Source: a virus
Taxonomy: Duplodnaviria; Heunggongvirae; Uroviricota; Caudoviricetes
DNA: 11,066 nt
Direction: 5' to 3' (one strand)
IMG/VR virus record: IMGVR_UViG_2693429582_000021
Location: 1 to 11,066 of that record
The translations under genes and the position numbers were made by a program. This document shows, one piece after another, positions 1 through 11,066 of this stretch; positions within the stretch are counted from its first letter, which is position 1; each line of letters opens with the position of its first letter. Under the pieces are notes generated by a model, which saw only the letters and a list, made by a program, of their open reading frames with translations, had not been told where the DNA came from and did no database searches.

Positions 1-34
1 GTATTCGCCGCCCGTATTCGTCAGGAGGTGCGCC

Positions 35-265
35 ATGTGCAATAAAAACACGCCGGACGCAGCAGGCGAAGCATTGAAAGTACTGATACATGCGCTTGTG
101 GATATAAATTGCATGGTAGAGATCATGGAGAGGAAATCACAGTCGGAGTACGACAAAAGAAAATTTAAAACAATAAAAATAATTACCAAAAACTCACTGA
201 CAAAAGCTACAGACATCCTCAATGAGGACACTAAAAGAATCAGGGAGAAACTGTGTGATGCATAA
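35..265 (+). CDS. hypothetical small protein (76 aa), first gene of plus-strand operon
   Basis: ORF with strong Shine-Dalgarno (AGGAGG at about 23-28) 6-8 nt upstream of the ATG at 35; no recognisable family from the translation. Confidence 0.5.
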   Translation: MCNKNTPDAAGEALKVLIHALVDINCMVEIMERKSQSEYDKRKFKTIKIITKNSLTKATDILNEDTKRIREKLCDA

Positions 266-485
266 AATACCTTTTGATGTTCTTATTCATTCTGAGAATG
301 CATTAATCCGCGCAAAGGAAATGGAGGCATTATTACTTAAGTTAATGGAAGTGCCGGAAAATGGCGATGAATCATATCCCATGATGTTTTCTGCCGTGCA
401 CACATTATTAACGCCAGTAATTAACGAATTAAATACGGTGATGGCAATTCACGAGAATAATAAAGCGCATCACACCGGAGAATAA
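258..485 (+). CDS. hypothetical small protein (about 75 aa from the ATG at 258; the ORF is open from 222)
   Basis: In-frame ATG at 258 preceded by GGGAGA about 9 nt upstream; overlaps the stop of the previous ORF (263-265), consistent with coupling. Function unknown. Confidence 0.4.
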   Translation: MHKIPFDVLIHSENALIRAKEMEALLLKLMEVPENGDESYPMMFSAVHTLLTPVINELNTVMAIHENNKAHHTGE

Positions 486-490
486 AAACC

Positions 491-790
491 ATGAAACAGA
501 AAAATTCTGGCTTTACTGCCAGCGGCCTCCCTCGGCCTGAAATCCGCCCCGGCGATATTTTCCGGGATAACTACGGCGGCACAGTAACGATTAAACACGT
601 GGCGGGACGGTGCGTTACTTACCGCCGTGATGGGTACGGCTATGACTGCGTGATGCCTGTTTATCAGTTCCGGCGTGATTTTTCCCTGGTACAGACTGCG
701 CCGCGTAACCAGCCCACCAGCAAAGAGAAGGCACGGGTAAATATTCAGGCCATAAGAAAAATGCTTAACGGATTCAGGGGTAAAAAATGA
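491..790 (+). CDS. hypothetical protein (99 aa), translationally coupled to the downstream primase-like gene
   Basis: GGAGA about 10 nt upstream of the ATG at 491; its stop overlaps the start of the next gene as ATGA (787-790). No family recognised. Confidence 0.5.
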   Translation: MKQKNSGFTASGLPRPEIRPGDIFRDNYGGTVTIKHVAGRCVTYRRDGYGYDCVMPVYQFRRDFSLVQTAPRNQPTSKEKARVNIQAIRKMLNGFRGKK

Positions 791-2919
791 AACTGGCACC
801 GAACGTAAAACTATTGCCGAAAGATAAAGGTGAGGAAGCAGTAATTTTTGTGGGGGATGACGCATACAGCCACGCAGAACATTACAGGCAGGGTGGAGAA
901 GCCGGAAAGCGCGGCGACAAAATACCGCCCGTTTATATCGGACGGCGTGACCTGGGTAATCTGGAAAACCTGCGTATTGTGGATGATGGCCGGTTACGCG
1001 TCATGGTCAGACGTGCCGGAAAGCTGGATGGCAAACAGGCGCTACAGATTGAAACCCTGCTCGCAGTAGCTGGTGTTAAGGAAGTCAGTTTTTGTGACGA
1101 GAACGGCGAACTACTGGAGGACTGGACACCACAGCTTGCCCGACTGAAAGACGAATACGAGCGTGGGGAAAGTCTGGTGTTGCCCTTAAAGAAAAAAATC
1201 ACAGAAAACCATGGCGATGATGAATTAAAGCCCCGCGTTGAAAGCCGCGCCGATGGTGTTTTCTGGGTAACGCCCAAAGTGGATAAGCAGTCAGGCGAAA
1301 TTATCCGGCCTGAGACGTGGTTATGTTCCCCGCTTGAACTACTGGGAACGGGAACAATCGGCAAAGAGCATTACCGCGTGATGCGCTGGAAAAAATTAGC
1401 AAATCATGAAGTCATCACAATGGCGATCCCGTGTGGTGGCATTGGCGACCGTGACGGCTGGCGGTTGCTGAAAGACCACGGTTTGAACGTGACAACCAAC
1501 GGTAAATACAGGGCTGTCCTGGCTGACTGGATGCAGTTAAGCGGAAGCCATGAGGAATGGCAGTTAAGCACAACAACGGGCTGGCATTTTGGCGCGTACA
1601 TCATGCCGGATGGTTCGGTCATTGGTGATTGCGAAAAGCCAGTCCTGTTTACCGGAAAAACGGCTGCCGTTAATGGTTATTCCGTGACAGGAACGGCGGA
1701 GGGCTGGCGCGACAGTGTGGCGCGACTGGCTGGTGGTAATCCGTCCATGATGCTGGGAGTGGCGGTATCGTTATCCGCACCATTAATCGGGCTGGTGGGC
1801 GCTGACGGCTTCGGGGTACATCTTTTCGAACAGTCATCGGCAGGGAAAACCACCACACAGAACATAGCATCAAGTTTATGGGGAGAGCCGGACGCGCAAC
1901 GGCTGACCTGGTACGGAACGGCGTTAGGTATCGCCAACGAGGCAGAGGCACACAACGACGGACTGTTACCACTGGATGAAATAGGCCAGGCCGGAAACGC
2001 GCGGGAGGTGTCCACATCGGCTTATACGCTGTTTAACGGTTCCGGTAAATTGCAGGGGGCGAAGGACGGCGGCAACAGGGAGATAAAACACTGGCGAACG
2101 GTGGCAATCAGTACCGGAGAAATGGACGTTGAGACATTCCTCAAAACGGAGGGGATAAAAGTCAAGGCGGGGCAGCTTGTCCGCCTGCTTAACGTGCCAA
2201 TGGAAAAAGCCACACAATTTCACGAATACAGCACCGGAAAGGCGCACGCAGACGCGTTAAAGGATGCCTGGACAGCAAATCACGGGGCGGCGGGGCGTGA
2301 GTGGGTTAAATGGCTGGCAGACCACCAGCAGGAGGCAAAGGATACAGTAAGGGAATGCCGTGAACGGTGGCGCAACCTGATACCGGAGAGCTACGGCGAG
2401 CAGGTCCACCGCGTGGGTGAGCGTTTCGCCATACTGGAGGCCGCACTTGTGCTTTCCGGTCATGTGACTGGCTGGGATGAGCAGGAATGCCGCGATGCCA
2501 TTCAGCATAATTTTAATGCCTGGGTGAAGGAGTTCGGCACGGGCAACAGGGAACACAGGCAGATTATTGAACAGGCTGAGGCGTTTCTTGCGGCCTATGG
2601 CCTGAGCAGGTTCGCCCCTGTCAATTATGACCCTGCCAGCCTGCCGATTTCAGAACTGTACGGCTACAGGGAAAGCGACGGGCGTTATGACGAGCCTGTT
2701 TTGTTTTACGTGCTGCCGGAGCCGTTTAGCTCACATGTGGCGAAGGGATTTAACAAGGATGCCGTAGCAAAGACCCTTCATGAAGCCGGAATGCTGAGAA
2801 AACCAGCCAGCGGGCGAGGATGGCAAATCAGGACACCACGGCTAAAACACCTGAAAGGGGCGCGGCTAAGAGTGTATGGCCTTTTGCTGACGCAGGACTA
2901 CGATGCTGAAAATGATTAA
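787..2919 (+). CDS. replication protein of integrative element/satellite: primase/helicase-like P-loop NTPase (DUF927/SF3-helicase-like architecture)
   Basis: 710-aa uninterrupted ORF; Walker A-like motif SSAGKTT (about nt 1840-1860) and Walker B-like hhhhDE (LLPLDEIG, about nt 1960-1985) in the middle of the protein; large N-terminal domain; immediately followed by an iteron array. Family assignment from pattern recognition, not a search. Confidence 0.8.
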   Translation: MKLAPNVKLLPKDKGEEAVIFVGDDAYSHAEHYRQGGEAGKRGDKIPPVYIGRRDLGNLENLRIVDDGRLRVMVRRAGKLDGKQALQIETLLAVAGVKEVSFCDENGELLEDWTPQLARLKDEYERGESLVLPLKKKITENHGDDELKPRVESRADGVFWVTPKVDKQSGEIIRPETWLCSPLELLGTGTIGKEHYRVMRWKKLANHEVITMAIPCGGIGDRDGWRLLKDHGLNVTTNGKYRAVLADWMQLSGSHEEWQLSTTTGWHFGAYIMPDGSVIGDCEKPVLFTGKTAAVNGYSVTGTAEGWRDSVARLAGGNPSMMLGVAVSLSAPLIGLVGADGFGVHLFEQSSAGKTTTQNIASSLWGEPDAQRLTWYGTALGIANEAEAHNDGLLPLDEIGQAGNAREVSTSAYTLFNGSGKLQGAKDGGNREIKHWRTVAISTGEMDVETFLKTEGIKVKAGQLVRLLNVPMEKATQFHEYSTGKAHADALKDAWTANHGAAGREWVKWLADHQQEAKDTVRECRERWRNLIPESYGEQVHRVGERFAILEAALVLSGHVTGWDEQECRDAIQHNFNAWVKEFGTGNREHRQIIEQAEAFLAAYGLSRFAPVNYDPASLPISELYGYRESDGRYDEPVLFYVLPEPFSSHVAKGFNKDAVAKTLHEAGMLRKPASGRGWQIRTPRLKHLKGARLRVYGLLLTQDYDAEND

Positions 2920-2944
2920 TCTCGCGTGTAGGCGGTAACAATAT

Positions 2945-3272
2945 GTTGTCCCAGTCGTCCCAGAAAGCAATAAGCAAGCGTAACATATTGAATTTTATAG
3001 ATTTCACTTGCAAAAAGTGGGACAACAGCGGGACAACATTCAGGCATTTTGGGACAACATTGCGGCATTTTGGGACGACACGACACGTATTTTTTACCGT
3101 GCCGAAGGGTGGGACAACGCAAAACCCCTCATGTCGTCCCAAAATCGGTAAATGTCGTCCCACTTTGCGGAGTGTGTTTTTAATAAAATCAATAAGTTAA
3201 CATTAAGTGGGACAACCGGGACAACTGGGACGACGTGTTTTGTATATATATACGAAAAATCGAGATCTGAAC
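2945..3272. repeat. iteron array plus AT-rich tract: putative replication origin
   Basis: About 12 copies of the 8-mer GGGAC(A/G)AC in both orientations (plus copies at 3019, 3030, 3051, 3072, 3111, 3209, 3218, 3227; inverted copies GT(T/C)GTCCC at 2945, 2954, 3133, 3154). Three copies sit in a 21-bp tandem unit CATT..GGCATTTTGGGACAAC (3030/3051/3072). An AT-rich stretch TGTATATATATACGAAAAAT (3241-3260) follows. Position directly 3' of the replication gene matches rep-ori organisation in satellites and plasmids. Confidence 0.7.
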
Positions 3273-3273
3273 T

Positions 3274-3516
3274 ATGAAGTCAAACCGCAAACAACCACAC
3301 TACCGCGCCATTGACCTTACAGAGCACTGGCTGAGAGTGGCGATAAAAATCATCGACCGCAACACGGGGGAAGGATACGCGAAAGCACACCCCGAACTGA
3401 TAAGCGCATTCATGGCAACGGCGGCAGCAAACTTTGCCACGCTGACAGAACGGGAGATTGCCGAATCGGAACAGGTGACAACCATCAACATTAAAACCGG
3501 AGAGCAGACAGCATGA
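3274..3516 (+). CDS. hypothetical protein (80 aa)
   Basis: ORF beginning just after the AT-rich tract; its stop overlaps the next start (ATGA at 3513-3516). No family recognised. Confidence 0.5.
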   Translation: MKSNRKQPHYRAIDLTEHWLRVAIKIIDRNTGEGYAKAHPELISAFMATAAANFATLTEREIAESEQVTTINIKTGEQTA

Positions 3517-3935
3517 CAGCACAGATAGCGGCTTACGGGCGGCTGGTGGCTGACCCGCAGTTAAAGACCACCAGCAAAGGGACACAAATGGCGATGGCGA
3601 GTATGGCGGTTCCCCTGCCGTGCAGCCAGGCCGATGACGGAACGGCGACGATGTGGTTATCCGTCCTGGCGTTTGGCAGACAGGCCGACGCACTGGCCAG
3701 ACACCACAAAGGCGAACTGGTGAGCGTGGCGGGTAACATGCAGGTAAGCCAGTGGACAGGCCAGAACGGCGAAACGCGGCAGGGCTGGCAGGTTATCGCA
3801 GACAGCGTAATCAGTGCGCGAACGGCGCGACCGGGCGGCAAAAAAGGTCAACAGGGCCAGGCTACTGACGCGCTGAACAGGGCAAAACAACAGGCGGGTA
3901 ATGATGATCCGTACGAAGACAACATACCGTTTTAA
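3513..3935 (+). CDS. single-stranded DNA-binding (SSB-like, OB-fold) protein
   Basis: 140-aa translation shows an SSB-like pattern: N-terminal GRLVADPQLK resembling E. coli SSB GNLGQDPEVR, conserved W...FG...A...KG..V...G......W....G..R spacing, and a Gly/Gln-rich tail ending in acidic residues plus DNIPF (SSB tails end D-D-D-I-P-F). Confidence 0.7.
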   Translation: MTAQIAAYGRLVADPQLKTTSKGTQMAMASMAVPLPCSQADDGTATMWLSVLAFGRQADALARHHKGELVSVAGNMQVSQWTGQNGETRQGWQVIADSVISARTARPGGKKGQQGQATDALNRAKQQAGNDDPYEDNIPF

Positions 3936-3971
3936 TTCACAACAGCGAACAGAGTTATTACAGGGGAAAGC

Positions 3972-4496
3972 ATGACAAAGCTGACCATTAACCGAAAACC
4001 GAAAGGCATTTACGGCACGCTGCAGAAAACGACGCAGGCGATACAGCAGCAGGATAAAACCACATCGGCGCATAAAGTGATACCCGGCAATCAGAACGCA
4101 CAGCAGAAGCCCACAGGGGCGACACCGTGGCGGCATATGACCAAACGCCAGCGCAAAAACCGCAGACGCGTTAACCGCCTTACTGAGATGTGGCCTGACT
4201 TATTCAGCCGGGAAGCGCCAAAACCGCTGAAGGTGGGGATATTCGACGACCTGATGCAGGATATCGCCGTCAGGGGGCTGGCATTCGGGCCGGGGGCATT
4301 ACGTGCGACGCTGGCATCTTATGCGCAGTCTCCACGCTATTACCGCGCCTTAATGGCTGGTGGGGTACGCTACGACCTGAAAGGCCAGCCATGTGGCGAG
4401 GTGACATCACAGGAACAACAGGACGCAGAAACGCGGCTGATGATGCTGAATGAGAAGCGTAAACGCCGGACAGCAAAGGAGAAGACAGGCGCATGA
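3972..4496 (+). CDS. FinO/ProQ-family RNA-binding protein (RNA chaperone)
   Basis: 174-aa ORF; the C-terminal two thirds align with the F-plasmid FinO core (WP.LF....P.L..GI.D.L..D.A.R...., Y...M.AG..RYD..G); basic N- and C-terminal tails typical of the family. SD-like GGGGAAA upstream of the ATG. Confidence 0.8.
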   Translation: MTKLTINRKPKGIYGTLQKTTQAIQQQDKTTSAHKVIPGNQNAQQKPTGATPWRHMTKRQRKNRRRVNRLTEMWPDLFSREAPKPLKVGIFDDLMQDIAVRGLAFGPGALRATLASYAQSPRYYRALMAGGVRYDLKGQPCGEVTSQEQQDAETRLMMLNEKRKRRTAKEKTGA

Positions 4497-4780
4497 TTCG
4501 TGACAGCAAAGCGGAAGAACTGGAGGCTAAAGGGCTGTACCGAAGAGCGACGGCGCGGTGGGCTGAGGTTATGCAACTGGTGAACACCGATAAGGAGCGC
4601 GAACAGGCGGCAAAGCGTCGCGCGGAATGTATCCGTAAGGCAGCACGCCCACCCGTTATGGCGGATAACTTCGGAGCGCTGAAAGAGGCTGTAAACCGCA
4701 CTCATGCGGTGATGGGGATGGAAGACGCGGGTAAATCCGTCTGGCGGAACTATCCAAAGCAGCCGGGCAATAATCAGTGA
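4493..4780 (+). CDS. small regulator, possibly PerC/Pch-family transcriptional activator
   Basis: 95-aa ORF coupled to the FinO-like gene (ATGA overlap at 4493-4496). N-terminus MIRDSKAEELEAKGLYRRATARWAEV resembles my recollection of PerC/Pch N-termini; the family call is tentative. Confidence 0.4.
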   Translation: MIRDSKAEELEAKGLYRRATARWAEVMQLVNTDKEREQAAKRRAECIRKAARPPVMADNFGALKEAVNRTHAVMGMEDAGKSVWRNYPKQPGNNQ

Positions 4781-4862
4781 TGCCGGATATTATCCTGAAA
4801 AATGACCATCACTCCCGTGGGCGGATAACATAAAATCCTGCATATACGCAGATACACAGACG

Positions 4863-4887
4863 AAGCCGGAACACTCCGGCTTTTTTT
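4863..4887 (+). terminator. rho-independent terminator ending the plus-strand replication/regulatory operon
   Basis: Stem AAGCCGGA / TCCGGCTT with loop ACAC, followed by a run of seven T (4881-4887). Confidence 0.7.
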
Positions 4888-4965
4888 ACGGGTCCTTCCA
4901 GAGGGGTGGCCTTACCGCGAGGCGACGGACGCGCGGAAATCGCCAAATTTTCGCATTTTTATCGG
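4888..4965 (+). other. cos-like site A (diverged cosQ-cosN-cosB-like sequence)
   Basis: ACGGGTCCTTCCAG (4888-4901) matches the lambda cosQ-region motif ACGGGTCCTTTCCGG. About 32 nt downstream, GAGGCGACGGACG CGCGGAAATCGCC AAATTTTCGCATTTTTATCGG parallels lambda GGGCGGCGACCT CGCGGGTTTTCGC TATTTATGAAAATTTTCCGG, roughly 65-70% identity by eye. Confidence 0.45.
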
Positions 4966-5233
4966 TCATCACCACCAGCGCAATTTATTGATAATGAAGG
5001 TTAAAAAAATTCCTGGTGTCGAAAACGCCTGTTTTTTGTTCACCACTGAATCATGCCGCATCACGATAACCCACAAGGCTGGTGGTGATGCGTTATGGTC
5101 CCTACGTTGCCATCCCCCTGACCTCATGGCATTATCCGGCGTGAACGAGCGGTTATTCTCCGTACTCTTAATCGTTGTTCATGGTTATTTGCTTTGTGGT
5201 AGCTTACATTTCCTGATGGTTATTATCCTTCCG

Positions 5234-5257
5234 CCCCGTAATCACGGGGTTTTTTTT
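5234..5257 (+). terminator. rho-independent terminator inside the non-coding region
   Basis: Perfect hairpin CCCCGT-AATC-ACGGGG followed by eight T (5250-5257). No credible upstream CDS, so it may terminate a small RNA; the 128-aa ORF 4988..5374 reads straight through it. Confidence 0.6.
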
Positions 5258-5295
5258 GTCTGCGATTTGCCGTTCTCCGTTGCGCTGGTGGTAAC

Positions 5296-5331
5296 GTCAC
5301 GATGTGTCACGACATGTCACCATCACGTCAC
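5296..5331. promoter_or_regulatory. phased array of four GTCAC motifs at about 10-bp spacing (putative protein-binding site)
   Basis: GTCAC at 5296, 5306, 5316 and 5327 within aacGTCACgatgtGTCACgacatGTCACcatcacGTCACg; one helical turn apart, which would place all sites on the same face of the DNA. Confidence 0.4.
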
Positions 5332-5720
5332 GCTGATGGCGAAAGTCAGGGTTAACCAGTACCGGAACGGGTAGCCCGATGTACTGTTACCGTTCTGCTG
5401 GCTGGTGGAGTAATTGATAACGGTTATCATCAATGGGAGGGGTGGATCAAATCCCTGTAGTCCTGGCTGTCAGGGACCGCCGCCCAACCCTTCTTCACAT
5501 CGCCGCAGGTTCGAAAACTTTTTTTTGGGAAGGTGCGCACAGACTTGATAGATAAAACCTATCAGACAAAACCACGCCAACCCCGCGCCATTGCTGGCAT
5601 CGTTAAAAAAACTCACTCCACCAGCAGGCTAAAAAACCGTGATTTTTCCGGTTTTATGGGCTGAAAAGGGGCTCCCTAAAAAACACCTCTTACACTGCCG
5701 GACAGGGGCGGTGACTTTTC

Positions 5721-5850
5721 ACGGGTCCTTTCCGGGGATCTGAAACACCACGGGGCGGCAGACGCGCAGATTTTCACTATTTATAAAAATTTTTCAGGGA
5801 AAAAGCATGTCGGTACTTCTTGCATGTAACATTATGTTTTTATTGCAACT
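5721..5850 (+). other. cos: cos site B: lambda-like cosQ, cosN and cosB upstream of terS
   Basis: 5721-5735 ACGGGTCCTTTCCGG is identical to the lambda cosQ-region motif. 5753-5764 GGGCGGCAGACG aligns with lambda cosN GGGCGGCGACCT. The following CGCAGATTTTCAC TATTTATAAAAATTTTTCAGGG ... CTTCTTGCATGTAAC ATTATGTTTTTATT parallels lambda cosB. The cosN-to-terS-start distance (189 nt) is essentially that of lambda cosN to Nu1 (about 190 nt). Confidence 0.75.
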
Positions 5851-5941
5851 AACTATCATAAACATACGACACCATAACGCCGGAAAATCCCGTTTTTCAG
5901 GCGTTTCATGTCGGAGGTGGTTTTTGATGAGGATTTGATAA

Positions 5942-6526
5942 ATGAATGTTAACAAAAAGAGACTGGCGGAGATTTTCGGTGTTGATCCGCGCACAATTGA
6001 GCGCTGGCAGATGCAAGGGCTTCCCCATGTATCTGGTGGCGGAAAAGGTGTGGAGGTGACTTTCGACTCTGCACAGGTGATCGAATGGTATGTACAGAGG
6101 GAGAAGGAGATCGAAAACGAAAAACTCCGCAGGGAGCTTGATGATTTACGTGCTGCTGGTGAATCAGATTTACAGCCAGGCACAACAGAGTACGAACGCT
6201 ACCGTCTCACCAAAGCACAGGCGGACGGGCAGGAACTGAAGAACGCCAGAGAGACAGGGGAAGTTATAGATACTGAGTTCGTACTCTGTGCGCTTCGTGG
6301 ACTGGCGAGTCAGATTTCTTCGATCATGGATAGTTTGCCGCTCACAATGCAAAGGCAGTTCCCCGGGATGACTCCGGCAATGCTCGATGGCCTGAGGAAG
6401 GAAACAGCACGAGCCTGTAATGCGTGCGCTAAAACTGCCGATAACCTACCCCGCATTCTGGAAGACTATCTGATGGAAACAACCGGAAACGTGCCGGAGA
6501 AGTTACGGCAACAGAAAGGTGAGTGA
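5942..6526 (+). CDS. terS: terminase small subunit, lambda Nu1 family (orphan; no terL follows)
   Basis: 194-aa translation closely parallels lambda Nu1 over the N-terminal wHTH and ATP-binding region: [49 protein letters not shown]...LR.A.E.DLQPGT.EYER.RLT.AQAD.QELKNAR. The C-terminal 40 aa diverge. Nothing resembling a large terminase follows on either strand. Confidence 0.9.
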
Positions 6527-6553
6527 CAACCGCGCAATTATTGAACAAAACTG

Positions 6554-6616
6554 AGAAAGGATCTGATAACGTTATTTTTGGCCCAAAATGACCACTGTCA
6601 GATCCTTTCTTTTTCT
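6554..6616. terminator. large palindrome downstream of terS, possible bidirectional terminator or protein-binding site
   Basis: Perfect 13-bp inverted repeat AGAAAGGATCTGA (6554-6566) / TCAGATCCTTTCT (6598-6610) with an inner ATTTTTGG-C-CCAAAAT hairpin, followed by TTTTTC on the plus strand. Confidence 0.45.
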
Positions 6617-6619
6617 GAT

Positions 6620-6753
6620 GATTTTACGATTAAACAATGAGTTACAGAGAAGAAGAACGGATCTGACTTTTCCCGAAAAATTTTCATAAACAGTTAAGAA
6701 TTGCGCGTATCCGTACCCCCGGCGCTCAAGATTCTGGAAAGGACCCGTGACAC
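6620..6753 (-). other. cos-like site C (inverted orientation relative to cos B)
   Basis: Minus strand reads TCACGGGTCCTTTCCAGAATCTTGAGCGCC GGGGGTACGGAT ACGCGCAATTCTTAAC TGTTTATGAAAATTTTTCGGG AAAAG TCAGATCCGTTCTTCTCTGTAACTCATTG. This parallels lambda cosQ / cosN / R3 / TATTTATGAAAATTTTCCGG / CGTTTCCGTTCTTCTTCGTCATAACTTAATG. The cosQ-to-cosN spacing is about 4 nt shorter than in site B. Confidence 0.65.
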
Positions 6754-6760
6754 CTGACCA

Positions 6761-6783
6761 ACAAAAAAGCCCCCGAAGGGGGC
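6761..6783 (-). terminator. rho-independent terminator of the minus-strand toxin-immunity operon
   Basis: Hairpin GCCCCC-GAA-GGGGGC (6768-6782) with an A-run at 6762-6767 on plus, giving a T-run after the stem on minus, immediately 3' of the immunity gene stop at 6788. Confidence 0.7.
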
Positions 6784-6787
6784 TAAA

Positions 6788-7036
6788 TTACGCATCTTTA
6801 AAACTGGATTTGCCATTAGCTAAACGCCAGGTTTTAACTTCTTGTACGATGGCTTCCGGACTATCGTCTTTTCCGTTCTCTGGATAAAAAATTAGATCAG
6901 AGCCTGATGGATGTTCAGAGAGGCGCCTGAATTCTCTGACTAACTGCTCGCTTTCTTTTTCTGTTCCTTCTGCATTACATATTTTTCGAACAAGATCTAA
7001 GAATTCATTTTCAGTATAGTCGTTTATTGTTTTCAC
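6788..7036 (-). CDS. colicin/pyocin DNase immunity protein, Im7/Im9 family
   Basis: 82-aa translation [24 protein letters not shown]....[40 protein letters not shown] matches Im9 (…SDYTEAEFLQLVTTICNA….[40 protein letters not shown]). GTG start 1 nt after the toxin stop, with AGGGGA SD inside the toxin 3' end. Confidence 0.85.
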
Positions 7037-7037
7037 G

Positions 7038-8729
7038 TTATTTTCCCCTGTGAATTTCTATATGCCGCTTTGGTGTTGTGATACCCATATTATCAACGTT
7101 ATAAACTTCGCCCCCCTCACTTATAGGTTTAATATGGTGTATTTCGTAACGTTCCCTCCCACCAACTCGCTCCACTTCCCTTGTGAATGGTGAACGTCCT
7201 TTGCGAATGTTCGTGAGGTTGTGTGCTCTGAACTGTCTTGACAAATCAGCATCGTTTGCCACTTCTGCCCAAAATGCCTCCCTGAATCGATCAAAATTCG
7301 CAAATGTTCGCCCACGCATCCGCTCCGCAATCTGGCTGGGTACTGGTGCACCATTTCCCTTATCGGCATCCACCAGCCACGCCCCGCTAATTTTTTGTCC
7401 TTTCCCTGTTACCTGCCCGGCGTTATTCCTGATGTAAATATAAATCGGCGGTATATCCGGGAATGGCAGGATCAGAATGTAATCCGCAAAATCCTTTTCT
7501 TCCGGGGCCGGGCTGGTTGTGGCGTGTAATCCCGTGTCATCCGGTAACGGGTCCACCATCACCGGATTCGGCAGCACTGGCGGGTACTGATTTCCCGTGT
7601 GGTACGGTACATCAATCCCCGGATTATCCGGCGTCCAGATGAGTGTGATACGCGGGTCTTCCTCCGTGGTGAATGTGTACGCCTTTCGTCTGTCGTCCCA
7701 CTCCATCCGGCGCACGCGCACCCTGTCCTGTCCCGGTGGCGTATGCCAGCCATGCGGAACGGGGTTCCCCCGGCTGTTCGTCTCCCAGGTAAAGCGAACA
7801 CGGGTAGGCACTTCCCTAGCCTGTTCGGCCCTCATACGGTCGATAAAATCCTGTTCCCCGTCATTCAGCCGACCGGGCATCATCCCTATCAGAAACGCCG
7901 CCAGTGGCAGCCCCGCAACCCCGGTCGCAGTTTCACCCACGACGGCCCACGTTCCCCGGATGGCAAAATTCCCCGCCACCGGACGCAGAACGCTCGCCCC
8001 GGCAATTGCCGCTCTGGCCCGTTGTGCGCGCTCCGCTTCTTCAACCGCACGCTGATAATCCATTTCCTCGTGATGGCCGTTCCACCATTTCCACAGTGCA
8101 CTGCGTTTCTTCGGCTTCGGGATATCCTCCGGCGCAACCAGTTTTTTCTTTTTGACCGCCTGTGCACGCTGCGGGGTTTCCGTGTCCGTCACCGGGTCAG
8201 TCTGCGGAACGGCCTGATAAATCCCCATCGGTGCAAAGTTGGTATGCGGCTCCCGCTGGTCGCCCGCGTCGTTGCATCCCTCACCGCGCAGACAGGATTT
8301 TGCAAACACCCGGTTACGTTCCCGTTCTTCCTCCCGGCGTTTTTCTTCAGCTTCCCGTTCTGCCTTGCGTTGTGCTATCAGTTCCGCCTGTTTTTTCTGT
8401 GCAATTTCTGCCGGCGACGGCCCCGCCCCCATCCACTGACCGAGCGGGGCAATAATCCGGTTTGAACCTTCAGGGCAGCCACAGTGAACAACACAGCCAT
8501 CAACGGCAATAGGAATATCTATCACCTTAAAACGGGCTTCTCCTTCTGCCACCATGCCGAGCTTTCCGCACGCCGGGCAGGGGGTGGTTTTGTCCCCCTT
8601 ACGAATAAGACCGTAACCACAGACGTTGTAGTTAGGGACAGGAAGGGAAGTAATCAGCCATGCGCCGGTGGTGGTTTTGTCACAGGAAAGCGCCATTCCC
8701 CTGCCGTGTATATCCGGCCTGTATGTCAT
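7038..8729 (-). CDS. polymorphic nuclease toxin: Cys-rich N-terminal domain, charged coiled-coil linker, pyocin-S-like region, C-terminal colicin E9-type HNH DNase
   Basis: The 563-aa C-terminus ([49 protein letters not shown]…[42 protein letters not shown]) matches the colicin E9/E7 DNase domain including the HNH motif. N-terminal 100 aa carry six Cys in CxxC and CxCGC clusters (possible Zn-binding, PAAR-like GD.T..C..CG pattern). Residues about 115-145 form a Lys/Glu/Arg-rich linker. No signal peptide. Resembles chromosomal bacteriocin-like genotoxins such as Usp, unverified. Confidence 0.9.
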
Positions 8730-9217
8730 GGCTTACACTCCGGCACTACCAGAAAATCCGCTGGCATACTTTCGCCTTCACGACAACAAAGTAATGCTGT
8801 TCGCTGCGGCGTACTGATAATTTCATCCCCGTTATCCAGTTGGCTGCCAACCAGCGCATACCCTTTCCCGTGACAGCTAAACGCACTGCCGGAACCACTG
8901 ACAATACGGGCCGTTGTGCCGTCCTGATAAGTCACCTCATCCCCGACCATCGCCATTTCAGCCATCTCTCCGGTGCTGTCAGCGACTTCGCAGCCGGAAC
9001 TGGCGGAAGACACCACCCCGCCATTACGGGTAAGGCTACCGGTAATGGCATGTCGCCAGATAGCCACTATCGGATGTTGACGGCAAAATTCCTCCTGCTC
9101 CCTGATTATCGCCAGCGCATCATCGGACATATCAGCAAGCGCTTCTTCTGTAAAAGGGGATTTATCCAGTTCTGCCAGTACATCGGCGGTCAGTTCGTTG
9201 GTATATTGCTTCATCAT
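8726..9217 (-). CDS. hypothetical 163-aa protein upstream of the toxin, possibly PAAR-like or adaptor
   Basis: Start MM at 9217 with AGGAAA SD-like upstream; stop overlaps the toxin start (ATGA coupling at 8726-8729). Acidic N-terminal 50 aa, then a Gly/Ser-rich region with repeated VGD and GS motifs (MAMVGDEVTYQDG, IVSGSGSAFSCHGKGYALVGS) reminiscent of PAAR repeats, and a Cys-containing C-terminus. Confidence 0.6.
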   Translation of the reverse strand: MMKQYTNELTADVLAELDKSPFTEEALADMSDDALAIIREQEEFCRQHPIVAIWRHAITGSLTRNGGVVSSASSGCEVADSTGEMAEMAMVGDEVTYQDGTTARIVSGSGSAFSCHGKGYALVGSQLDNGDEIISTPQRTALLCCREGESMPADFLVVPECKP

Positions 9218-10050
9218 GTTTCTGTTTTTCCTGTGGTTAACAATCGACCAGAATCATAATGAAAGGGAATGCAAAAAAATTGATGGATATCAAAATGAAA
9301 AATAAAATCATCCCGGTAAAACAGGATATCTACCCCACCAGCATCCCTGGATTTTCAGATAGTTGCTTTTAGCCTCTGAACAACATCTGCTGGTGGCTGA
9401 TAATTACAATAATTCCTGCCCCCTGGCGTTTCTGAGCATGTTTACCGCGAATTTTGCGCAAAACACCTTAACAATTCTTAAATTTTAAAAACACTTCAGT
9501 GATAAGCATCACCGCTCCCGCTCACATTTGACACAGGCAACTCCATCTGGCAGGTGAAAATCAAATTTATTTATATATTTCAATTGATTGTAAACTGGTC
9601 TAATGACAGGGGAGAAAAAAGACTGTACAGGTGAAAACAGAAATAATTTTTAATTATCAATGAATTATCACACATGCTGCCGCCGCCATGAAAATGCAAA
9701 AACTAGCCGTTTTCTGCGCATCCGTCGCCCCGCGGTAAGGGGCACCCCACCGGGAGGACCCACGACGATCAGGGCGTTTTATCAACGTCGTGTGTTATGC
9801 CGGATTAACTGCGTACGTAATACGTGCACATCCCGAACAGGAGCAGCCAGAATCAGCGCCGCTGACGTTGTTTTGTGGTTATCCCCCTGTCATGAATCAT
9901 CGCAATGGTTTTATGTGTTCTGCGTTGCGCTGGTGGGTTATTCCACCATTGGTGGGAAACATGGCACCACATCCACCAGCTTAAACGCGCTTCACCTTCC
10001 CGGCATCAGTCGCCACAATTACGGCATTGCTTTCCATCACCACGGAGGCC

Positions 10051-10341
10051 ATGACCATGACCGAAGCCGAAATGCTCAAAATGATTCGCCGTGCTGCCGG
10101 AATCAGCCAGGCAGCAGGCAAACAGGAGGCCACGCAACCGGACAGCGTGATAGCCGAAAATTACGCGCGTGTGGTGGCTGATGTGATGCGCCGTGACGGT
10201 ATCGAGCTTAACGGCGTGGATATGCGCGATATACGAACCAGAGTTCTCGAGTTGCTGGCATGTCGTCGCCGTTCTCAGCAACGGAGGGAGAGCGCGAAAA
10301 ATACTTACCAGTGGAAGAAGCCGGAGCGGTTACGGCGGTAG
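10051..10341 (+). CDS. hypothetical protein (about 95 aa; the ORF is open from a TTG at 10027)
   Basis: GGAGG at 10044-10048 with ATG at 10051 and 10057; basic C-terminus; no family recognised. Confidence 0.45.
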   Translation: MTMTEAEMLKMIRRAAGISQAAGKQEATQPDSVIAENYARVVADVMRRDGIELNGVDMRDIRTRVLELLACRRRSQQRRESAKNTYQWKKPERLRR

Positions 10342-10577
10342 TGTCAGCATGATTTGCGAGGTAGTAATACTGACTCGCAACAGAGTGACCGATAGCCACC
10401 CTGTTCAACCGTTCCGGCTGGCTGGGCAGATTTTGCGCGGGTCTTATAGTCCCTCACAACAGAGTAAATAAAATTGACTTGGTTACAGAGTAACCAAACC
10501 GGAGATTCCCGGTTTGCTCAAAAAATGACAATGAGTTACGCCCCCTAACCTAAGTAATCCTTACATTCACTGCATCA

Positions 10578-10592
10578 TCACCATGATGGTGA
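10578..10592. promoter_or_regulatory. 7-1-7 palindrome TCACCAT-G-ATGGTGA (candidate operator)
   Basis: Perfect 7-bp inverted arms in an intergenic region. Confidence 0.3.
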
Positions 10593-10706
10593 CGCAGCCC
10601 ACCAGCAACCATAACGATTTCCGTTACAGTTGATGTGCTTTTTTGCTGGTAAGGCGTAACCCGTTGATTGTTCCAGAATCCCCCATTGGGGGAAGCTGAA
10701 AAACTC

Positions 10707-10731
10707 ACCCACCAGATTCTGAATGGTGAAA
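10707..10731. promoter_or_regulatory. 9-7-9 palindrome CTGAATGGT-gaaaatg-ACCATTCAG (hairpin or operator)
   Basis: Perfect 9-bp inverted repeat; shares the ATGGTGA core with the palindrome at 10578; a second hairpin CCCGAAA…TTTCGGG follows at about 10747-10773. Confidence 0.3.
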
Positions 10732-10976
10732 ATGACCATTCAGCTTCATGTGTCCATTTTCCCGAAACAGGAAAACCCGTTTTCGGGAGAAGGTGCGATC
10801 ATGTTCGTCATACCTGTTCCGTTGAAACGGTAATACCCCATTCCGGCGTAGCTGGTGGGTATGATGCCGATGCCGGGATCTCGGTATCGGTTTATCCGTG
10901 ATCATCCACCAGCTTGATAACGGATAACAGGGAGTCATAACGGTTAAAATTGTATACTTTTGCAGCAAACATTTTT

Positions 10977-11021
10977 AGCTACACGTTAAGCTACACGATT
11001 TTTGAGTTGAAATTTTCAACT
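10977..11021. promoter_or_regulatory. direct repeat AGCTACACG x2 followed by palindrome AGTTGAAA/TTTCAACT (candidate regulatory site for a gene beyond the window)
   Basis: AGCTACACGTTAAGCTACACG, then GAGTTGAAATTTTCAACTTCAAC; AT-rich context at the window edge. Confidence 0.3.
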
Positions 11022-11066
11022 TCAACTAAATCAATTAGTTATTGGCATGTTTTGAATACTCTCGTG

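Follow-up and report, generated by a model that had tools for sequence, protein, structure and literature searches.

The closest described relative of the locus treated here is EcCICFT073, a phage-inducible chromosomal island (PICI) of Escherichia coli that has two cos sites, both supporting helper-mediated transfer. Its cos1 is needed for lambda- and phi80-mediated transfer, with RppA promoting the use of this site, while deletion of cos2 raises transfer of the island and cloned cos2 supports transduction (Fillol-Salom et al. 2018 and 2019; PMC6092414, PMC6739421). In the CFT073 genome (locus L011, NC_004431.1 1376599-1398742), cos1 lies at 10925-11007 (plus strand), rppA at 11061-11495 (plus) and cos2 at 11741-11663 (minus), i.e. 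an inverted cos pair brackets a packaging-specificity gene. The orientation of cos1 and cos2 is mentioned neither in these two papers nor in the review of Murialdo and Feiss, and no open-access text other than the two on EcCICFT073 was found to speak of a second cos, an absence that is weak evidence as subscription journals were mostly outside that scope. Other satellites, such as the pac-type Staphylococcus aureus pathogenicity islands (SaPIs), SaPIbov5 and P4, carry either their own small terminase subunit (TerS) or a helper cos for packaging by the helper motor (background in PMC6092414). The DNA analysed here (the window, 11,066 nucleotides, positions 1 to 11,066 of IMG/VR record IMGVR_UViG_2693429582_000021) is the DNA-packaging region of an E. 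coli PICI of the EcCICFT073 family which, unlike those satellites, combines a TerS and its cognate cos with three cos sites of other specificity in a nested inverted arrangement.

With EcCICFT073 the island shares a core gene set (int, HTH regulator, Icd-like, DUF4222, primase, ssb and PerC), the same 'right' flank after the last inverted site, and the inverted cos pair around a specificity gene, so that this inner core is of an already known kind, of which the four-site nested array is a variant. The differences are that EcCICFT073 has rpp where the window has a full-length Nu1-family terS, that the island lacks capsid and decoration genes, that an outer inverted pair from the DUF1441 small-terminase family is added, and that cos1 and cos2 share the lambda 12-mer, whereas the 12-mers of the inner pair in the window differ. 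No rpp gene (~145 aa, directly downstream of cos, its product mimicking the TerS DNA-binding domain but lacking the tail that binds TerL) was found in the window by tblastn with RppA, RppB and RppC; the match was confined to 26-30 residues at the N-terminus of TerS, a shared DNA-binding fold (E=9e-4 for RppA, 2e-3 for RppB).

The four sites were recovered with a cos profile built from phage sites only (lambda, 21, cdtI, SerU-LTIIb and mEp460), with the window sequence excluded. It matched the window at 4884-4971 (plus strand, site A), 5717-5803 (plus, site B), 6752-6665 (minus, site C) and 9767-9683 (minus, site D), with scores of 38.1, 66.6, 31.0 and 41.2 bits, respectively (E from 1.5e-20 to 1.8e-9), as compared to a top score of 9.7 bits in 200 dinucleotide-preserving shuffles of the window. 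The original prediction had named A, B and C, within 4888-6753, as three lambda-like cos sites; all three are real, at the coordinates it gave and far above the shuffled controls, but the observation was understated, since the count is four and D falls outside that interval. It was a comparison of the window with related islands that first brought D to light, as a match to A in the opposite orientation. Blastn with lambda cos (the last 200 nt plus the first 260 nt of lambda) returned B at 5718-6010 (E=4e-30) and, in reverse, C at 6748-6595 (E=1e-13), and at A only the 13-nt cosQ word matched. An independent repeat search gave B/C arms at 5710-5802 and 6668-6759, as well as A/D arms at 4910-4962 and 9688-9740 (83%). 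The similarity of B and C, put at about 75% by eye, amounts to 78% identity of the cores, and the predicted distance of about 830 bp between A and B was measured as 833 bp (cosN at 4920 versus 5753).

Aligned with lambda, 21, cdtI and SerU-LTIIb, all four sites are in register and have the plan of a lambda-type cos core, i.e. cosQ ~30 bp upstream of a G+C-rich 12-bp cosN with partial two-fold symmetry, followed by an A+T-rich I2. In a 16-bp cosN frame, 10 positions are symmetric in lambda (as published) and in B, 8 in A and in C, and 6 in D, where ~4 are expected by chance. The frame of the cohesive ends was set by alignment to lambda and by the left ends of the cdtI and Tritos records; both of these start where lambda does in the alignment, which fixes the predicted 12-mers. 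The cohesive end of C had originally been placed at 6699-6710, and the alignment moves it to 6706-6717. The features of the four sites and of the gene between B and C are as follows.

4884-5064, plus strand: site A, mEp460/1720a-02/CP-1639-type cos (DUF1441 small-terminase phages), profile E=1.2e-11
4888-4899, plus: cosQ of A
4920-4931, plus: predicted cosN 12-mer of A, AGGCGACGGACG
4945-4962, plus: I2-like block of A
4963-5064, plus: 'alpha' cosB of A
5717-5919, plus: site B, complete phage-21-type cos (blastn, alignment to M81255)
5722-5733, plus: cosQ/R4 of B
5753-5764, plus: predicted cosN 12-mer of B, GGGCGGCAGACG
5782-5796, plus: I2 of B
5803-5818, plus: R3 of B
5825-5839, plus: I1 of B
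5862-5877, plus: R2 of B
5904-5919, plus: R1 of B
5942-6526, plus: island terS, 194 aa, Nu1 family (Pfam Phage_Nu1, E=1.9e-68)
6554-6752, minus strand: site C, SerU-LTIIb prophage-type cos with complete lambda layout, inverted (blastn)
6736-6747, minus: cosQ of C
6706-6717, minus: predicted cosN 12-mer of C, GGTACGGATACG
6674-6688, minus: I2 of C
6654-6669, minus: R3 of C
6632-6646, minus: I1 of C
6595-6610, minus: R2 of C
6554-6569, minus: R1 of C
9482-9767, minus: site D, cdtI/Tritos/HannyBb-type cos, inverted partner of A, profile E=1.3e-12
9752-9763, minus: cosQ of D
9719-9730, minus: predicted cosN 12-mer of D, GGGCGACGGATG
9688-9705, minus: I2-like block of D
9482-9687, minus: 'beta' cosB of D
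9496-9546, minus: dead 5' stub of a DUF1441-family terS (stop after 16 codons), homologous to the beginning of cdtI gp01

Site B is 74% identical to phage 21 over 205 bp and can be aligned subsite by subsite with the annotated features of M81255: R4/cosQ, cosN, I2, R3, I1, R2, R1 and the start of gene 1 follow in the same order and spacing, R3 is nearly identical (GTGTCGGTACTT vs ATGTCGGTACTT) and R1 is TTTCATGTCGG in both. Its cosB has the R3-I1-R2-R1 plan with R2 inverted and the small-terminase gene right after it; terS starts 23 bp past R1, as in phage 21, and its ATG corresponds by homology to that of gene 1. The encoded protein is 61% identical to gp1 of phage 21, 70% to Nu1 of PhiR5_1 and 53% to Nu1 of lambda. 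The differences from phage 21 are a poorly conserved R2, a cosN 12-mer of GGGCGGCAGACG in place of GGGCGGCGACCT, and the lack of a large-terminase gene (terL) after the island terS. The Nu1-family TerS of the island thus has its cognate site in B, which had been described earlier as a near-canonical cos at the lambda-like distance from a Nu1-like terS.

Site C is a second full cos in inverted orientation, as had been proposed. It too has R3-I1-R2-R1 with R2 inverted, and the inverted R1/R2 and R2/R3 boxes were confirmed by the independent repeat search. Its best phage match is the cos of SerU-LTIIb (74.6% over 206 bp), and its R boxes read CAGATCC..TTCT rather than CGTTTCC..TTCT. C has no gene of its own: beyond its R1 (6554) comes the 3' end of the island terS. 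B and C have different bases at 6 of the 12 positions of their 12-mers, and the exact identity shared by the two sites in the window is 15 bp.

The outer pair is of another kind. Blastn of A returned phages 1720a-02, CP-1639, phi458 and mEp460 at 71-73% over ~165 bp, with the likeness to mEp460 and 1720a-02 covering the cos core and cosB, so A is the cos of a different phage group and not, as had been supposed, a diverged copy of B. D is 87-90% identical to HannyBb, Tritos and cdtI over 237-280 bp (89.5% to cdtI nt 13-249), including the first codons of terS. In cdtI, cos is followed by a DUF1441 protein and then by a large terminase with GpA_ATPase and GpA_nuclease domains, and since cdtI-type phages have this layout, A and D would be sites for gpA-family terminases. 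The cosQ word and the 12-mer frame of these phages are common with lambda, whereas the cosB of A and D differs from the R3-I1-R2-R1 type and is shared with DUF1441-type phages. Unlike in the phages, terS in the satellite is a dead stub (D) or absent (A), there is no terL, and the sites face each other. The 12-mers of A and D differ at 2 of 12 positions, with an exact shared identity of 10 bp in the window.

The start of the A cosB (4963-4979, CGGTCATCACCACCAGC) resembles the Rpp-dependent cosB of EcCICFT073 cos1 (GGTGACACCACCACCAC, L011 ~11010-11030), and most cosB variants of outer sites, though not the cdtI-like one, begin with a CATCA(C/T)CA(C/T)C run. A decayed rpp gene after A, suspected from the likeness of cosB CATCACCACCAG to CACCACCACCAC of EcCICFT073 cos1, was discarded, as tblastn with RppA, RppB and RppC was empty there.

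For comparison, 18 related islands were used in addition to the window (19 in all), plus tabulated hits. Relative to the core, the four sites are ordered > > < < in 12 of 12 complete four-site relatives as well as in the window (13); in OkiPb01677, cut short by an IS66-type insertion, the first three sites remain. Two-site islands are ordered > < in five out of five, EcCICFT073 included. Within this constant frame the content is rearranged, involving the cargo between C and D and one further segment.

5065-5712, no strand: segment X, spacer, non-coding by annotation, with 8-9% divergence among islands

The following orders occur.

A X B terS C cargo D: window, C5 and OkiPb01677 (D lost)
A cargo C' terS' B' X' D: IGC_RcoliRes, CFIAFB20180511, STEC383, Z1324SEC0014, SA53-3 and SW071618
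A cargo B terS C X' D: MB06102 and A19
A X C' terS' B' cargo D: A36

Thus, all four flip states of the inner (B-terS-C) and outer (A-to-D) segments are found, and X adjoins either inner cos site, in either orientation. By pairwise blastn, A19 and A36 differ by a clean outer inversion with collinear flanks, while clean inner inversions separate A19 from STEC383 and the window from A36, i.e. the inversion between B and C that the original prediction had proposed to look for among related genomes. A further inner inversion distinguishes CEA224S from U90, with the segment 97.2% identical and the flanks 94%. In every case the breakpoints lie inside the ~80-bp cos cores, where forward and reverse alignments overlap by 70-85 bp. 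Islands that differ in orientation also diverge by 3-10% in sequence, and no recent flip was seen. Among the matches listed, for which orientation was called with a synthetic query of core plus terS, terS is co-directional with the core in 3 complete genomes (and the window) and opposed in at least 10. An identical 506-bp internal deletion of terS (window 5959-6464) is present in OkiPb01677 (L015 10497/10506) and SW071618 (L022 9423/9415), with the inner module co-directional with the core in the former and opposed in the latter, and with different cargo.

A complete DUF1441 gene lies right after the first outer site in several relatives (L004 14345-14854, L008 10150-10659, L021 7674-8183 and L022 8139-8648), which therefore hold two facing cos-plus-terS units. 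CEA224S, PapRG-04-4 and U90 have the EcCICFT073-type capsid module, with terS replacing rppA.

The sites themselves are mosaic. The inner sites mix spacer, cosN 12-mer and cosB types in all combinations: site 3 of MB06102 joins a 21-type cosN to S-type R boxes, and the reverse (S-type cosN with 21-type R boxes) is found in site 3 of A36, site 2 of A19 and site 1 of CEA224S. The switch points are mostly in the 16-bp I2 block, and some are in the spacer; L006_2 and L016_3, for instance, are chimeras that change from 21-like to S-like sequence 5-6 bp left of the predicted nick. Paired sites share between 8-16 bp and 73 bp (MB06102) of exact identity, some islands having paired sites identical over 42-73 bp, and homology among islands often stops exactly at the outer edge of a cos site. 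In the second site of A19 (L016 8855-8911), the cosQ word is replaced by unrelated sequence, with cosN, I2 and a 21-type cosB kept, from which it appears that this site could initiate packaging but not terminate it.

As regards the mechanism of inversion, no invertase is annotated in the related islands, where the integrase is the only recombinase, and none was found among the 10 window ORFs (open reading frames) scanned with Pfam, the remaining small ORFs being outside the scan. A dedicated recombinase gene beside short inverted crossover sites, as in Hin/Gin/Cin or shufflon systems, was thus not found within that scope. Since the arms share only 10-15 bp in the window and no invertase is annotated in the relatives, the suggestion of an invertible or recombinogenic cassette holds in the sense of evolutionary rearrangement, not of a demonstrated switch. 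Cutting and rejoining by terminase was considered as well, but with 12-mers that differ within both pairs the cut ends would not anneal in the window, and together with switch points off the nick this means that ordinary or relaxed homologous recombination fits better; cut-and-rejoin survives only for islands with identical paired 12-mers.

Divergence between the window and 10 relatives shows that terS is intact and under purifying selection, with pS 0.09-0.21, pN 0.02-0.055 and pN/pS ~0.1-0.3. The 133-bp non-coding cosB of C diverges by 0.023-0.045, i.e. ~5-fold below the synonymous sites of terS, which argues that C is not drifting as a scar would; the cosB of B occurs as two alleles. Every island keeps cosQ, a cosN-like 12-mer and the I2 block at all four sites (the cosQ word of the second A19 site being the exception), whereas cargo and flanks vary.

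Taken together, it seems fairly probable that the four sites form a multi-helper packaging array, the inverted layout of which would avoid premature termination and deletion, with occasional inversion by recombination. What the sequences show directly is the identity, architecture and conservation of the four sites, together with the inversions and the mosaic sites among relatives; cleavage and packaging at each site, the identity of the helpers and the reason for the inverted layout are what we infer from them. Each site would let a different helper start packaging on island concatemers, so that the array would broaden the helper range: at B the island TerS would presumably recruit a helper large terminase, C may be used directly by a helper of SerU-LTIIb-like specificity, and A and D by the own terminases of two DUF1441-type lambdoid helper groups. 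Terminal cos cleavage is reportedly dependent on polarity and length, according to work from the Feiss laboratory. As termination needs only cosQ and cosN in the right order, a second site in direct orientation would shorten the packaged DNA and favour deletions. The knowledge of lambda packaging behind this argument is summarised in PMC9026076. With opposed sites that share cosQ and cosN and differ in cosB, a motor started at one would read through the other, and an inverted pair could not lose the intervening DNA by recombination. Recombination in the ~80-bp cores would instead sometimes flip B-terS-C or A-to-D, thereby reshuffling cosQ, cosN and cosB, and the ~14-kb island might be packaged as multimers, as proposed for EcCICFT073. 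Of the options in the original prediction, which is partly supported overall, that of a satellite using helpers of different cos specificity is the best supported, given that the four sites resemble four phage cos types and that the cosB of C is conserved. Its premise, that several cos sites defy simple packaging, fails, as EcCICFT073 has two functional cos sites (PMC6092414, PMC6739421).

Several points weigh against a multi-helper array. The function of the sites, both in the window and in its four-site relatives, is read from the DNA, and the TerS-encoding E. coli PICIs IHE3034 and 18098 transferred poorly from their native strains when tested in 2018. A, C and D are without a cognate small terminase in the window island, and the pseudogene stub in D implies that at least part of D is a recombination scar. 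A and B are direct and could leave mismatched ends if one terminase used both. Moreover, inversion between inverted repeats preserves > > < < automatically, so the constancy of this order alone is no proof of selection, and the conservation of the C cosB could partly reflect the recent spread of one cassette. Finally, at least 10 complete genomes (H17-H26) without terS retain both flanking cos sites, B included, which means that B either works with a helper TerS or is not needed.

Some of these points are also what would be expected if only B and its terS worked, with A, C and D as inert leftovers of recombination flanking a cargo slot. The likeness of D to the left end of cdtI and its dead stub, the missing cognate genes of A, C and D, and island homology that often ends at the outer cos edge, as expected of recombination joints, are in line with this, as is cos2 of EcCICFT073, which the island can do without and which even reduces transfer by lambda and phi80. 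The earlier idea of a recombination scar is partly right for D, but not for the toxin cargo as a phage moron. However, C retains every subsite, with a cosB far less diverged than the neighbouring synonymous sites, the three core elements are kept at all four sites in spite of variable cargo and flanks, cos2 is active in transduction when cloned, and terS-less islands keep both inner sites, which makes the inertness of A, C and D unlikely. The flip states bear on a different possibility, i.e. that the inverted pairs act as a true switch, thrown fairly often (during helper infection, for instance), that sets which packaging unit faces the late operon, or the packaging direction relative to the chromosome. 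In its favour are the two orientations seen for each segment, with every combination represented and the breakpoints inside the cos cores, the same terS deletion in either state, paired sites that in some islands are identical over stretches long enough for homologous recombination, and a terS that runs with the core operon in some islands and against it in most. Yet no invertase is annotated, exact identity in the window is limited to 10 bp (outer) and 15 bp (inner), orientation-differing islands have diverged by several per cent and each assembly gives one state, so a true switch appears quite improbable.

As the original prediction also suggested with its decoy option, the extra sites might serve interference, making helper terminase cut or start unproductively and lowering helper yield. 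PICIs of the EcCICFT073 family hinder helper packaging via Rpp, opposed cos sites on one concatemer would drive motors towards each other, and the gain in EcCICFT073 transfer upon cos2 deletion indicates that a second site can cost packaging. On the other hand, a site that captures terminase also packages the island and is hard to tell from piracy, a full-length island TerS could compete directly, and the conservation of a complete cosB layout fits productive initiation equally well; we rate interference as a rather remote prospect. A more speculative addition to the multi-helper array, and one that we regard as doubtful, is that the cos sites also constitute a built-in recombination system, in which double-strand breaks introduced by the helper terminase at paired sites would bring about flipping, exchange and the reshuffling of cosQ, cosN and cosB. 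Inverted cos pairs may then bound portable cassettes, i.e. cos-terS-cos, cos-rpp-cos and a larger one with the cargo slot. If true, helper infection itself would create new packaging specificities and cargo combinations, and islands with shared cohesive ends (L005, L020, L006, L008 and EcCICFT073) could invert by cutting and re-annealing, with no recombinase.

The remaining features of the window lie in X, between C and D, and around the primase gene.

5233-5250, plus strand: terminator-like hairpin in X
6768-6784, minus: terminator-like hairpin closing the toxin/immunity operon, just before the cosQ of C
6788-9217, minus: cargo operon between C and D (Pfam)
6788-7036, minus: colicin/pyocin immunity protein
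7038-8729, minus: PAAR / S-type pyocin / HNH DNase toxin
8726-9217, minus: PAAR protein

X also holds a cluster of GTCAC(G) repeats near 5296-5335 and has no Rfam match; the window as a whole gave no structured RNA in Rfam, and a promoter scan of 4700-6900 scored no better than shuffles. Most related islands lack the cargo of the window and have other cargo or nothing in the slot. OkiPb01677 has the same N-terminal region of the toxin with a different C-terminus, a DUF6392 gene replacing the immunity gene. The toxin cargo had no match in 50,697 phage records, and its interpretation as a phage moron beside cos was rejected, as the sole phage matches were to the D-proximal 219 bp.

That the window derives from a satellite island is evident from Pfam and ORF data: it encodes a DUF927 primase (787-2919), ssb, ProQ/FinO and PerC besides the Nu1-family terS. 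Ten TGGGACRAC iterons on both strands (2945-3234, chance expectation 0.2) lie just past the primase gene and presumably form the replication origin of the island. The nearest complete genome, E. coli C5 (CP010122), is 98% identical across 76% of the window, and its ~14-kb island is located between tRNA-Pro and yejO, with int and the HTH regulator at the left end; the window does not reach the int end. EcCICFT073-type PICIs in general have int at one end, an AlpA-type HTH regulator, a primase/replicase with the origin beside it, a size of 10-15 kb, no lysis or tail genes and a chromosomal attachment site of their own, and the window taken together with the C5 island agrees with this plan.

PICIs carry toxin, virulence and defence genes among enterobacteria, and their spread is limited by the helpers able to package them. 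If the proposed multi-helper array is correct, four cos specificities from two small-terminase families plus an own TerS would explain the use of many lambdoid helpers. It would also imply a design rule, namely that sites with common termination signals have to be opposed, and this would explain why EcCICFT073 has a second cos. The natural cosQ/cosN/cosB chimeras provide a ready set for probing the cosN tolerance of the gpA-type nuclease, and the cargo slot, with its PAAR-pyocin DNase toxin and immunity gene, ties the array to the mobility of interbacterial weapons.

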